Position numbers: made by a program. Positions 1-3,000 of a DNA stretch of 27,401 nucleotides are shown piece after piece (the first letter of the stretch is position 1; the number at the start of each line of letters is the position of its first letter). This DNA comes from Candidatus Woesearchaeota archaeon. Its GTDB lineage: Archaea; Nanobdellota; Nanobdellia; Woesearchaeales; JAZDKJ01. The DNA lies in the NCBI GenBank assembly GCA_043803105.1, contig JAZDKJ010000009.1, positions 1-27,401 on the forward strand, written 5' to 3'.

Positions 1-3000
1 GGGAACATTTTTGGCCTTAGGTGCGCTTTTCTGCCTTCAAAATCATGCTCTATTTCAAATAAGAAGAGCCCAGCATAAGCCCTGCTGCCAATAAAGAATA
101 TGTCTATCCGTGTCGTTGGTTTGTCTAGGTTCACTCTAGGATTCCTTACCCCTCTCCATATAAATCCAGCCAGCTCTGCTTCTCTGAAATCGCTTTTTCC
201 GTGGATTCGAAGGCAAAAGTCCTTTCGGTAGATACTGCTCCATTTGTAATGTTCCAACCTTTTCAATAGTTGTCTTATTTCGCAGTCAAACACGAACCGG
301 TAAACAGCCTTGCAGTAAGCTAATCTCGAAAAATTGGTTTTTGTTGCCCGAAGAATTGCCAGATTCCCAACAACCTTAACCTTCTTGCCAATAAACCCTT
401 CAACTTCTGCCTTGGCAACCTTAAGGTTTTCTCCTGATAACTGCAAGAATAGCATCACAGGTAAGCCTTGATATCATCATATTTAAGTGTTACCAACAAG
501 TTTATAAGCAATAAAAAGTTTACATGTCTTAATGTTTGTCCAAGGAGGTTTTCCTATGAGAGTTTTGGCTGCTTTATTGGTAATAGTTTTTTTGGCTGGC
601 TGCACAACGTACGCACCACGAGCAGCACCGCTAACAGTGCCAGCACCTGCCCCTACTCCTAGTGTGCCGTCTGTTCAGACCACAACCACGCCAGAGCAGC
701 AGCAGGCAGTCCAAGTCGTCATGTCAAACTTCAAGTTTGTGCCGAATACCTTGACAATTTCTGCAGGTACAGAGGTTGATTGGATAAACCAGGATTCTGT
801 TCCGCACACTGTAACTATAGCCAGCCTGGCTGTTGACCAGCCAATGCCTTCAGGCGCACAGTACGGCCATATCTTCAGCAATCCTGGCACTTATGAAGTG
901 CGGTGCAAGTTACACCCAAGCATGATAATGACTGTTACAGTTCAATAAAGCCTTTTTTTCTTTGTTTTGTTGCTTCAATTGGCTGCCAGTCTTACAGGTT
1001 AGCATGAGAAAGCTATTGAAAGTCAAGGTCTTTGGTTCTGTCCAGGGTGTTGGCTACAGGCATTTTGTTCGTATGAATGCAGAATCGCTTAATCTCTCAG
1101 GTAACATAAGGAACCTTCCGGATGGCTCTGTAGAAGCTGTCTTTGTAGGACAAGAGGAGGATTTGAAAAAGATGCTTGAGATTTGCAGGAAAGGCTCTGC
1201 TTTTTCGAAAATAACAAAGGTTGTTGAAGAATGGAGTAACCCGGACGAGAGTTTCAACGGCTTTAAAGTGCTTTCTTCCTAATTCTGTAAAGAAAGATTG
1301 TGGACGCTATTATCATTCCAATGCACAGGTACTGCCCCATTGACAATCCAAGGAACCTTGGGTCTTCGCGGACAAAGTTCTCAACAAACCTGAACACCCC
1401 ATACAGCAAGACAAAGAGCCAGAAGATTGTTCCTGACTGCATCTTCCTTTTCTTTAGGAGCATCAGTATTCCAAATATGAGAAGCATGTAGCCTGCCTCA
1501 TACAATTGGCTTGGATGCCTGCAGCCTGCAATCCCGGGATAATTAATGCACCACGGTAGGCTTGTAGGAGTGCCTATGAGCTCTCCGTTGGTAAAGTTGG
1601 CAATCCTTCCGAAGAAGAGCCCTATGCTTGCAGGCATTACAATGTTGTCTGCTAAAGAATAGAACTTCACCTTGTATTTCCTGCAGAACAGGAAGGTTGC
1701 AACAACAACCCCAATTAGCCCGCCGTGAAATGACATTCCTCCATGCCAAATCTTTAGGATTTCCAGCGGGTCTCTGATAAACACTCCAGGATCATAGAAA
1801 ACGAACTCTCCTATCCTTGCGCCCACAACAAGCCCAATGGCAAGGTAAAACAGTAGGTCATCCAGTTTACCCTCTGAAAGGTTTGGTATCTTTTTATGCC
1901 TGATTGCATGCCTTAGCATGAAGTATGTGATTGCAAGCCCAAGTACATAGGCTAGCCCATAATATCTTATCTCGAGAAAGCCTATCTTCAATAGCACTGG
2001 ATTGATGTTGTACTCGATCACGCCTTCTGTCAATTAACACCACTTTAAAAATTTTCCTTCGCAAACTTTATTAACACCGCTTCCTCCAGCATCCAAATGA
2101 AGGAGGCTATGTTCTTTAGAAAGCTCAAGGATAATGTTGTGCAATGCAGCCTGTGCCCGCACAGCTGTGTTATTAAGGATAATGAGCGAGGGAAATGTGG
2201 TGTGCGCGAAAACAGGCAAGGCGTGCTCTATGCCCTTACCTATGGCAAGCCCATTTCATCTGCGATCGATCCTATAGAGAAAAAACCTCTGTACCATTTT
2301 CTTCCAGGCTCAAGCTCTTACTCCATCGCTTGTGTGGGCTGCAACCTTAGCTGCCTTTTCTGCCAGAACTCAGACATTTCCCAGATGCTTAAGGAAGGCC
2401 GGATCTTGGGTACAGATGCCTCTGTGCAGGATGTTGTTGATGAAGCTATTGCCTCCGGCTGTAAGAGCATCTCTTATACCTACACTGAGCCCACGATTTT
2501 TTTCGAGTATGCCTATGACATCGCCAGGCTGGCAAAGTCGAAGGGGATAAAGAATGTTTTTGTGACCAATGGCTTTATCAGCAAGGATGCTATTGAGTTT
2601 ATTTCTCCTTTTCTTGATGCTGCAAACATTGACTTAAAGGGTTTCACTGATGAGTATTATCAGAGGGTTTGCGGTGCAAGGCTTCAACCTGTGCTTGACG
2701 CAATCCAGCTGTATTATGACAAGGGAGTCCACATTGAGCTCACAACCCTCATTGTCCCCGGGCAGAATGATGACCCCTCAATCCTTAAGTCGATTGCAGA
2801 ATTCATTGCCAGGATAGACAAGCGGATTCCTTGGCACATTTCCAGGTTCTTCCCTCAGTACAAGATGGCTGGCCTGCCCCCAACACCCGTAGAATCAATA
2901 CGCAAGGCTGAACAAATCGGCAAGGAATCAGGCCTCAAGTATATTTATCCTGGAAACCTTGGGGAGGAAAGCGACACCGCGTGCCAGCATTGTTCGAAGA

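Follow-up and report, generated by a model that had tools for sequence, protein, structure and literature searches.

The window analysed here is a whole contig of 27,401 nucleotides (C9) from a Candidatus Woesearchaeota archaeon, and the features discussed below are collected in Table 1. The gene under study encodes a homologue of prolipoprotein diacylglyceryl transferase (Lgt). A canonical Lgt had been reported at C9:1287-2000 in a previous survey of the genome, and this was borne out, those positions being the Pfam envelope within a longer ORF. The match to PF01790 is full-length (profile positions 1-239 of 240) and scores 235.7 bits against a cut-off of 24.9; NCBIfam TIGR00544 gives 185.6 bits, again above its cut-off (118.9), and sequence comparison with E. 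coli Lgt (5azb) shows homology over the full length with an E-value of 1.2e-36. At a threshold of E 0.001, an AlphaFold2 model of the protein (pLDDT 96.2, pTM 0.91) matches a single PDB entry, 5azb (TMq 0.81, E 1.2e-15), and the predicted structure shares with 5AZB its seven membrane helices and its arm and head domains.

Table 1. Positions in the window of the lgt gene, its conserved residues and two further genes
Feature	Position	Strand	Basis
Small cupredoxin, candidate substrate beside lgt	532..948	+	Cupredoxin_1 47.5 bits, Copper-bind 36 bits
lgt, prolipoprotein diacylglyceryl transferase homologue	1263..2033	-	ORF, 256 aa; TTG start 2033-2031, stop 1265-1263
Asn219, at the E. coli E243 position	1377..1379	-	Alignment to 5azb and codon
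YGVFR, Y211-R215, aligned with E. coli Y235-R239	1389..1403	-	Alignment to 5azb and DNA read
Lgt signature motif GRIANFTNGELIG, G142-G154 with R143, N146, E151 and G154	1572..1610	-	Read from DNA
HGGL motif, His103-Leu106	1716..1727	-	Read from DNA
Tyr25, aligned with E. coli Y26	1959..1961	-	Alignment to 5azb and codon
Ribosomal protein L15e, contig marker outside the pathway	18948..19523	-	PF00827 205.2 bits

We applied the Lgt signature pattern G142-R-x-x-N-F-x-N-G-E-L-x-G154 together with H103-G-G-L, and both are present. The resemblance to E. coli 5AZB proposed by the survey stands, the HGGL, signature and YGVFR motifs having been confirmed on the DNA. Residues reported as essential, namely Y26, R143, N146, G154, Y235 and R239 (PMC4728403 and PMC13251419, in the available parts of both papers), all have equivalents in the archaeal protein, and each of these, from Tyr25 to the Y and R of YGVFR, is kept in 120 of the 120 nearest homologues. 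The equivalent of H196 is likewise invariant (120/120), E151 is found in 119 of these homologues and the His of HGGL in 118; R246 is kept as well. According to the available part of PMC4728403, mutation of H103 abolishes complementation by E. coli Lgt, and in 5AZC the hydroxyl of Y26 is hydrogen-bonded to the sn-2 ester oxygen of phosphatidylglycerol. Family, fold and catalytic residues confirm the 256-aa protein as an intact, full-length bacterial-type Lgt. It differs from E. coli Lgt in its host, which is archaeal and has archaeal lipid genes, in its length (256 aa, compared with about 290, or 300 in the chain of 5azb), the stretch from the signature to RHPSQ being shorter, and in the Asn found at the E243 position.

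The latter position is occupied by glutamate in all 81 bacterial sequences compared, whereas 36 archaeal sequences have N (12), E (12), D (7) or T (5), and the 120 nearest homologues T (55), N (47), D (12), E (5) or S (1). Judged from these sequences, the replacement of E243 is peculiar to the archaeal clade. In E. coli Lgt this residue is part of a buried hydrogen-bond network, and E243A, E243Q and E243R do not complement (PMC4728403, available part), whereas E243A was scored as not essential in another study (PMC13251419, available part). Since the published views on its essentiality conflict, we did not treat Asn219 as excluding the protein from the Lgt family.

Concerning the other steps of lipoprotein maturation, the signal peptidase II (LspA) claimed at C8:13405-13788 proved to be real, with 125.3 bits for PF01252 (cut-off 25) and 96.8 bits for TIGR00077 (cut-off 73.95). 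Its sequence contains GNLIDR and FNVAD, the motifs holding the two catalytic aspartates. As a bacterial LspA would, it passes both curated profiles, but its host is archaeal and its gene lies on another contig, not beside lgt. The transacylase reported on C2 gave divided scores: it shares PF07314 with Lit, the lipoprotein intramolecular transacylase of Firmicutes, above Pfam's cut-off (about 50.6-52.3 bits against 24, at C2:42378-42863), but falls below both NCBIfam cut-offs, with 34.8 bits against 400 for NCBIfam Lit (NF051877) and 55.2 against 74.8 for TIGR01906. As Pfam's cut-off is the only one passed, "Lit-like" is the furthest justified name. The acyl chain shifted by Lit is bound through an ester, and ether lipids have no such chain to give; this known reaction also sets Lit of Firmicutes apart from the C2 protein. 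The Lit-like family is present in 77 of 101 genomes of the order, and Lnt had no match in this genome.

The second Lgt proposed at C3:13763-14455 was also recovered (PF01790, 142.2 bits), and it does lack three catalytic residues, having F, C and C at the H103, N146 and E151 positions. Its Cys-Cys pattern occurs in six of the compared bacterial sequences too, and it is therefore the mark of a subfamily and not a sign of decay; relatives with more than 50% identity number only 3 for this copy. A second, degenerate Lgt paralogue is mentioned for Mycobacterium smegmatis in the available part of PMC12462473. The two cases are alike in that a second copy of the family, with changed conserved residues, stands alongside a canonical one, and the C3 copy is distinguished by F, C and C at the three positions.

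Candidate substrates were searched for with a strict lipobox pattern, which is found in 20 of the 1671 ORFs of this genome, against a mean of 0.86 and a maximum of 3 in 50 shuffles. The three lipobox N-termini previously listed, at C10:31594-36672 (LVAC), C5:25256-26128 (VVAC) and C4:23958-24905 (LSSC), all exist. The proteins bearing the pattern include three solute-binding proteins, ApbE, a subtilase of 1692 aa, a PLD-like protein and a cupredoxin, which are typical lipoprotein kinds. The cupredoxin is the one encoded beside lgt: its signal peptide, MRVLAALLVIVFLAGC, starts from the ATG at 556 and the lipobox LAGC was read from the codons at 592-603. Thus in this genome Lgt is accompanied both by LspA and by lipobox proteins. 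Such N-termini are also found in other Lgt-bearing genomes (8 of 455 ORFs in G025, 4 of 453 in G181), while the three Lgt-less genomes censused have none (G137, 0/465; G301, 0/430; G326, 0/372); these three are all small and from other orders, so that the contrast is not phylogenetically independent.

We then considered how far the pathway extends, our genome surveys reaching as far as this one archaeal phylum. PF01790 and PF01252 were positive in 10 of 10 bacteria and in none of 4 model archaea, as had been claimed for these controls. Lgt had also been described as near-universal in the order (38 of 41 genomes); this agrees with our count from a different sample (93 of 101 by PF01790), but the gene is not limited to the order, being found in 265 of the 301 phylum genomes, all of them at least 90% complete. 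LspA is present in 266 of the 301, and the two genes are found together in 255, Lgt alone in 10, LspA alone in 11 and neither in 25. The Lgt/LspA pathway hence spans most of the sampled phylum, beyond the order.

In Haloferax volcanii the presumed task of AliA and AliB (arCOG02177/02178) is the same, namely to place a thioether-linked glyceryl lipid on the lipobox Cys, but AliA belongs to a different family, HHpred giving a probability of 29% between arCOG02177 and PF01790 (PMC12462473, available part). The available part of PMC9426492 assigns HVO_2859 to the DUF63 family. AliA corresponds to DUF63, PF01889. A search with PF01889, which detects its positive controls in M. jannaschii, H. volcanii and M. 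acetivorans, had no match in this genome (96.47% complete) or in any of the 101 genomes of the order. Across the phylum it is positive in 8 of 301 genomes, with 30 to 205 bits, and all 8 fall among the 25 that have neither Lgt nor LspA; Lgt and AliA are found in one genome in 0 of the 301. The Lgt pathway appears to stand in place of the archaeal AliA.

We consider it likely that, in this archaeon of Woesearchaeota type (Nanoarchaeota, DPANN), the intact bacterial-type Lgt opens a lipoprotein pathway of the bacterial style, and that the pathway was acquired once and replaces AliA. In such a pathway, Sec or Tat would export proteins with a lipobox at the end of the signal peptide; Lgt would then transfer the glyceryl-lipid moiety of a membrane glycerophospholipid to the lipobox Cys thiol, LspA would remove the signal peptide immediately before this Cys, and the Lit-like membrane protein may further modify the new N-terminus. 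That Lgt would be enzymatically active in the archaeon is what we infer. A search for sequencing runs brought up no RNA run and a single DNA run, with a 0.07 share of words. The survey's observation is thus confirmed and its interpretation is supported.

It is hardly credible that lgt is bacterial DNA misbinned into an archaeal genome. The assembly consists of 13 contigs with 1.51% estimated contamination, and one close homologue (P0016) is labelled "Bacteroidota bacterium". However, the same 27.4-kb contig encodes, besides L15e, whose family is confined to archaea and eukaryotes, SRP54 and a PolX, and the second Lgt copy shares its contig with PolD DP2 (of the PolD, Cdc6, MCM and TBP previously said to surround that copy, PolD was the one re-examined, and it was confirmed). 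Because L15e is on the window and PolD on C3, both contigs are archaeal. Moreover, the 265 phylum genomes with Lgt include single-contig ones (G016, G025, G085 and G097 in the order, G181 in the phylum), and the archaeal copies form their own branch in the tree. To the extent that sequence can decide the matter, misbinning is refuted by the archaeal markers that this contig carries. Regarding the origin of the gene, a first FastTree with 262 sequences, mostly unnamed, left archaeal and bacterial tips unseparated on an unsupported backbone, and it was replaced by a smaller one. In this tree of named rows, which is unrooted, 24 archaeal Lgt lie on one side of a branch among 44 bacterial sequences (SH-aLRT 94, below the tree tool's star), and the archaeal branch has a Peregrinibacteria sequence as its sister (support 93). 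Apparently, bacteria passed the pathway on a single time, to an early representative of the phylum. Vertical descent of Lgt from an archaeal-bacterial ancestor, with retention in Nanoarchaeota and conversion into AliA in the other archaea, seems improbable to us. It would agree with the proposal of Hong et al. that AliA derives from the Lgt family (PMC12462473, available part), with the mutual exclusion of Lgt and AliA within the phylum and with a tree that is unrooted; however, the archaeal branch is short-stemmed and lies within Desulfobacterota, Nitrospirota and Proteobacteria plus the Peregrinibacteria sequence, Clostridia, Omnitrophica and Chloroflexota are further away, and the nearest bacterial copies are 41-48% identical, a high value for lineages that would have parted at the root of life. 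It is also quite improbable that the Lgt fold has a different job here, for instance transferring a lipid group to another acceptor, the lipobox proteins being handled otherwise. The replaced E243 and the altered active site of the C3 paralogue (F, C and C) would fit such a role, but Lgt and LspA are together in 255 of 301 genomes, lipobox N-termini are confined to the Lgt-bearing genomes among those censused, and this genome has no AliA that could lipidate instead.

The identity of the lipid donor was approached through the membrane lipid genes. The genome encodes a G1P-dehydrogenase-like protein (326 bits), a CDP-archaeol synthase (140.6 bits) and an archaetidylserine-synthase-like protein, together with a second CDP-alcohol transferase that matches no specific assignment. 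For bacterial lipid synthesis, PlsC and ketoacyl synthase had no match in this genome, and 100 membrane ORFs contained no PlsY and no CdsA except for a secondary match of CarS. A complete archaeal lipid pathway was rejected, since GGGP synthase had no match in this genome and the sole UbiA-family protein is closest to decaprenyl-phosphate phosphoribosyltransferase, leaving no recognisable DGGGP synthase; among the enzymes encoded in the genome, none was identified as making archaetidylglycerol. We infer that the donor would be an archaeal ether lipid such as archaetidylglycerol and not bacterial phosphatidylglycerol. A more tentative proposal, to which we give somewhat less than even weight, is that throughout the phylum Lgt takes an ether-linked group of the diphytanylglyceryl type, with sn-2,3 (mirror-image) configuration, from archaetidylglycerol, attaches it to the lipobox Cys and has displaced AliA, the loss of E243 being part of the adaptation to the different lipid; if so, Lgt would show in nature how a single enzyme fold can work on either side of the lipid divide. 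Three residues of the E. coli structure, Y26, M100 and R143, touch the ester oxygens of phosphatidylglycerol (PMC4728403, available part). Ether lipids have no ester carbonyls for these residues to meet, which counts against an ether-lipid donor. It is on the whole unlikely, but should be weighed seriously, that Lgt keeps its bacterial activity, using ester-linked phosphatidylglycerol which the cell would take up from bacteria that are its neighbours or hosts, and that the anchor is an ordinary diacylglyceryl. The phosphatidylglycerol-contacting and catalytic residues are all kept except E243; the nearest bacterial Lgt are 41-48% identical, compared with 42-46% for distant Woesearchaeota copies; the missing GGGP and DGGGP synthases mean that lipids must partly be imported; and a Lit-like protein, in 77 of 101 order genomes, belongs with a reaction that needs an ester-linked chain. 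On the other hand, this protein is far under the NCBIfam Lit cut-off, the three archaeal-type lipid proteins named above make sense only for archaeal lipids, and PlsC, ketoacyl synthase, PlsY and CdsA are missing in the searches described.

The claim that no archaeal Lgt is known is real and still current in the literature (Hong et al., PMC12462473). The same group stated the absence again in JBC in August 2026, and in mBio in May 2026 Lgt was considered absent from archaea on the basis of a RefSeq search of February 2021 (PMC13251419); from the absence of Lgt and Lsp, Hong et al. concluded that archaeal lipids demanded different enzymes (PMC12462473). In their available parts, these three papers of 2025-2026 take a lack of Lgt and Lsp in archaea as their starting point. 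The suspicion that database annotations already name these proteins was justified, since NCBI and JGI call proteins of related MAGs prolipoprotein diacylglyceryl transferase, so that the gap is in the literature and not in the databases. We found no earlier report of an archaeal Lgt in print, although the supplements of PMC12462473 and Table S2 of PMC13251419, outside the available parts, may show part of the pattern; no paper was found joining prolipoprotein diacylglyceryl transferase to Woesearchaeota, nor, in the available parts of the literature on both subjects, any report of signal peptidase II in DPANN. What is new here are the phylum counts, the exclusion of AliA, the lipobox census, the archaeal branch, the lipid-gene profile and the E243 departure.

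A large archaeal phylum having both Lgt and LspA almost universally, and no AliA beside them, corrects the distribution map of these enzymes, and Lgt/LspA versus AliA within one phylum is a natural experiment on enzyme replacement. It also raises a sharp question, that is, whether a bacterial-type Lgt can use ether lipids of the opposite glycerol handedness. DPANN cells rely on partners for lipids and meet these partners at the cell surface, and the predicted lipoproteins, which comprise solute-binding proteins, the 1692-aa subtilase and redox proteins, bear on the biology of that surface.

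The survey's finding placed an Lgt at 1287-2000 of the window. The gene is present, but this interval is the Pfam envelope inside a longer open frame, which is listed with the other features in the table below. Its product spans profile positions 1-239 of 240 in the Pfam LGT family (PF01790, 235.7 bits) and lies above the NCBIfam equivalog cut-off (TIGR00544, 185.6 bits vs 118.9); compared with E. coli Lgt (5azb), it gives E 1.2e-36. The AlphaFold2 model, with 61 sequences as input, has a mean pLDDT of 96.2, and only one PDB entry, 5azb, matches it significantly (E 1.2e-15, TM-score 0.81). 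In the pairwise alignment, the central part of the protein happens to carry the same residue numbers as native E. coli Lgt. All 120 nearest homologues share the counterparts of Y26, R143, N146, G154, H196, Y235 and R239; 118 have that of H103 and 119 that of E151. The protein is truly an archaeal member of the Lgt family; the observation of the survey is confirmed and its interpretation supported.

Features of the window and of other contigs of the source genome (positions without a contig prefix are those of the window)
Feature	Position	Strand	Remarks
lgt	1263-2033	minus	open frame, 256 codons, TTG start
H103-G-G-L motif	1716-1727	minus	alignment and DNA read-back
Lgt signature motif, G142-G154	1572-1610	minus	GRIANFTNGELIG, including R143, N146, E151, G154; alignment and DNA read-back
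Y211-G-V-F-R215	1389-1403	minus	matches E. coli Y235-R239; alignment and DNA read-back
Tyr25			counterpart of E. coli Y26; alignment and DNA read-back
Asn219	1377-1379	minus	at position of E. coli E243
Cupredoxin gene	532-948		adjoins lgt; in lipobox set; signal peptide MRVLAALLVIVFLAGC
Acylphosphatase gene	962-1282	opposite to lgt	20-base overlap with lgt 3' end
Radical SAM protein gene	2097-3098		lgt neighbour
M50 site-2-type protease with CBS domain	3163-4248		lgt neighbour
PolX with PHP domain	4241-5932		lgt neighbour
HAD-family hydrolase gene	16660-17328		within low-G+C stretch
LspA	C8:13405-13788		PF01252 125.3 bits; TIGR00077 96.8 vs cut-off 73.95
Lit-like protein	C2:42378-42863		Pfam cut-off passed, 50.6-52.3 bits
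Second Lgt-family gene	C3:13727-14497 (L002:1465-2235)		Pfam 142.4 bits
Rnf/Nqr membrane subunit genes	C4:13117-15715 (L023:1-2599)

One position, that of E. coli E243, departs from this conservation: among the 120 nearest homologues it is T in 55, N in 47, D in 12, E in 5 and S in one. In a labelled comparison all 81 bacterial sequences have E and the 36 archaeal ones have N (12), E (12), D (7) or T (5); the change is specific to the clade. According to Mao et al. (PMC4728403), E243 sits with R239 and R246 in a buried hydrogen-bond network and E243A, E243Q and E243R did not complement; a 2026 study (PMC13251419), which used a delta-lgt delta-lpp strain, classed E243A as non-essential.

The contig bearing lgt is archaeal. 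The same 27.4 kb also encode the ribosomal protein L15e (205.2 bits), SRP54, a class II lysyl-tRNA-synthetase-type protein and a PolX-PHP polymerase, and the 13 contigs of the assembly (1.56 Mb, estimated 96.47% complete with 1.51% contamination) are even in G+C, at 0.42-0.45. Within the window, G+C dips to 0.33-0.36 at 16001-18000, vs 0.41-0.48 elsewhere. Large ORFs stand in a row at 21973-27401 (364, 504, 545 and >306 aa) and are probably surface proteins; one matches Big_13 and glucodextranase-B, the others have no Pfam family, and the lipobox patterns found no match among them.

Species-representative genomes were scanned for Lgt, giving 80 named loci, of which 8 belong to archaeal MAGs (42-61% identity) and 72 to bacterial genomes (41-48%), including Desulfobacterota, Nitrospirota, Cloacimonadota, Alphaproteobacteria and a Peribacteraceae genome. 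The 68 rows of the tree (IQ-TREE 'quick', LG+C20 by PMSF) were the 8 archaeal loci, every second bacterial one (36 of the 72), 10 loci from genomes of the order, 13 named database proteins and the window protein. One branch (SH-aLRT 94, under the tool's star threshold of 95) sets the 24 archaeal rows apart from the rest, and their sister is a Peregrinibacteria (CPR) sequence (support 93); much greater distances separate them from the sequences of Clostridia, Omnitrophica and Chloroflexota. An earlier FastTree of mostly unnamed sequences left archaeal and bacterial Lgt unresolved. The present tree, which is unrooted and has thin CPR sampling, fits a single ancient bacterial transfer, which would have been followed by vertical descent.

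As the survey had suspected, databases already name these proteins: NCBI and JGI use prolipoprotein diacylglyceryl transferase for the closest homologues, and therefore the window Lgt is not new at the annotation level. Closest homologues bearing an organism name are assigned to Candidatus Woesearchaeota, Nanoarchaeota or a DPANN archaeon. Two database proteins within the archaeal Lgt clade, P0016 and P0203, are labelled otherwise at NCBI ('Bacteroidota bacterium', on a 37-kb contig, and 'Nitrosarchaeum sp.', on a 5-kb contig), and these are probably binning labels, not real hosts. Archaeal Lgt is already annotated, yet the current literature contradicts its existence. Hong et al. (PMC12462473) state that no archaeal Lgt homologue has been identified, a JBC paper of August 2026 and a FEMS review of 2018 state the same, and an mBio paper of May 2026 gives Lgt as absent from archaea, on the basis of a RefSeq search of February 2021. 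Our literature search, with supplementary tables outside its reach, found no report of Lgt or LspA in DPANN archaea.

The source genome has two matches to PF01790 and one to PF01252. Lgt was found in 93 of 101 genomes of the order sample (71 of the 76 of good quality) and in 265 of the 301 genomes of the phylum sample, all at least 90% complete, 58 of these positives coming from other orders of the class; LspA was found in 266 of the 301. Both are present in 255 phylum genomes, Lgt only in 10, LspA only in 11 and neither in 25, and the unpublished genomes G296 and G297 are positive in both tallies. Since 10 of the 11 own-order genomes without an Lgt match have LspA, most of these gaps are probably assembly gaps. 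Hong et al. (PMC12462473) identified the enzyme of archaeal lipidation as AliA (HVO_2859, arCOG02177), and because HVO_2859 is annotated 'DUF63 family protein' in a table of PMC9426492, PF01889 was used as the AliA model. It matches the controls M. jannaschii, H. volcanii and M. acetivorans, has no match in the source genome or the 101 genomes of the order sample, and occurs in 8 of the 301 phylum genomes, at 30 to 205 bits. All eight fall among the 25 genomes lacking both Lgt and LspA, and the two systems never share a genome among the 301. As related genomes do not count as independent samples, this exclusion should be read as a pattern rather than as a statistic. The window protein belongs to an Lgt-LspA system that is spread across the phylum and excludes AliA.

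Candidate substrates were searched for in the N-termini of 1671 ORFs of the source genome, called by a greedy longest-ORF rule, using lipobox patterns after the G+LPP and PROSITE rules. A strict lipobox at the first start codon was found in 20 ORFs; when the same N-termini were shuffled 50 times, the mean was 0.86 and the maximum 3. Internal methionines would be expected to give about 0.45 matches, and cysteine is 5.6-fold over-represented at position +1. Of the 20, TatC and a 69-aa ORF are doubtful. Among the others, two solute-binding proteins are of the NMT1 type, and there are also ApbE, a subtilase of 1692 aa, a protein with a PKD domain and a PLD-like one; with looser patterns come a further solute-binding protein (ABC_sub_bind), a PEBP and a DUF333 protein. 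Concerning the cupredoxin next to lgt, a reference title in PMC13631571 presents halocyanin, a blue copper protein with a lipobox, as the first archaeal protein predicted to bear a lipid anchor. Repeated in five further phylum genomes, with 334-400 kb covered per genome, the census gave strict lipoboxes in 8 of 455 ORFs in G025 and 4 of 453 in G181, which like the source genome have Lgt and LspA and no DUF63 match, and in 0 of 465 in G137 (L065-L084), 0 of 430 in G301 (L142-L161) and 0 of 372 in G326 (L105-L121), which lack Lgt and LspA and have DUF63 at 30, 48 and 158 bits, respectively. Shuffle means were at most 0.22 in these five and counts of hydrophobic N-termini similar (48 to 80); G326 gains one match once later in-frame starts are allowed. 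Zero strict lipoboxes in the three DUF63-bearing genomes would be odd if AliA serves canonical lipoboxes.

Three tandem genes at C4:22935-25860 (L249:1-2926) encode proteins of 311-319 aa without a Pfam family, with lipobox signal peptides LITGC, LSSC and VLAGC. The lipobox ApbE (282.9 bits; C4:17074-18048, L248:1-975) lies about 1.4 kb from the Rnf/Nqr membrane subunit genes, suggesting a lipoprotein flavin transferase that serves an Rnf complex.

The LspA named by the survey passes both models, and its sequence has GNLIDR and FNVAD, the motifs holding the two catalytic aspartates. The proposed Lit-like transacylase holds at the Pfam cut-off but falls far under that of the NCBIfam Lit model (34.8 vs 400), and the Lnt N-terminal domain was not found in the source genome. 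The second Lgt, on a contig that also encodes PolD DP2, misses the TIGR00544 cut-off (74.7 bits vs 118.9) and, as the survey had pointed out, lacks three catalytic residues, with F, C and C at H103, N146 and E151. No more than three database relatives are over 50% identical to it; the Cys-Cys pattern is common to six bacterial sequences compared, which makes the protein look like one of a subfamily of its own. The first tree grouped it with a clade holding a Chloroflexota-labelled sequence. An exosortase/archaeosortase-family protein is encoded at C6:479719-480735 (L042:8982-9995; Exosortase_EpsH 67.7 bits, TIGR04178 49 vs 23), and the genome may therefore encode, in addition to the lipobox route, a second system that anchors proteins at the C-terminus.

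Regarding the donor lipid, the source genome encodes a G1P-dehydrogenase-like protein (NF002022, 326 bits vs cut-off 413, E 2e-97), a CDP-archaeol synthase (NF003114, 140.6 bits vs cut-off 148) adjoined by an archaetidylserine-synthase-like transferase, and a second CDP-alcohol transferase beside the G1P dehydrogenase and a HAD-phosphatase fusion. GGGP synthase, PlsC and ketoacyl synthase were not found in this genome, nor, among 100 of its membrane ORFs, were PlsY or, beyond a secondary match of CarS, CdsA. The cell therefore handles archaeal-type lipids and can make neither bacterial ones nor the full archaeal lipid; the donor would most simply be a lipid such as archaetidylglycerol. Against such a donor, a Lit-like protein (PF07314, one match in the source genome) occurs in 77 of the 101 order genomes, and known Lit chemistry needs an ester-linked chain. 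Moreover, Y26, M100 and R143 of E. coli Lgt contact PG ester oxygens (PMC4728403). An apparent lipid head-group cluster at C13:57552-62152 (L062:553-2900, L064:1303-3326), with genes for a G1P-dehydrogenase-like protein, a nucleotidyltransferase/HAD-phosphatase fusion, a CDP-alcohol phosphatidyltransferase and a B12-binding radical SAM protein, could make the lipid that Lgt uses.
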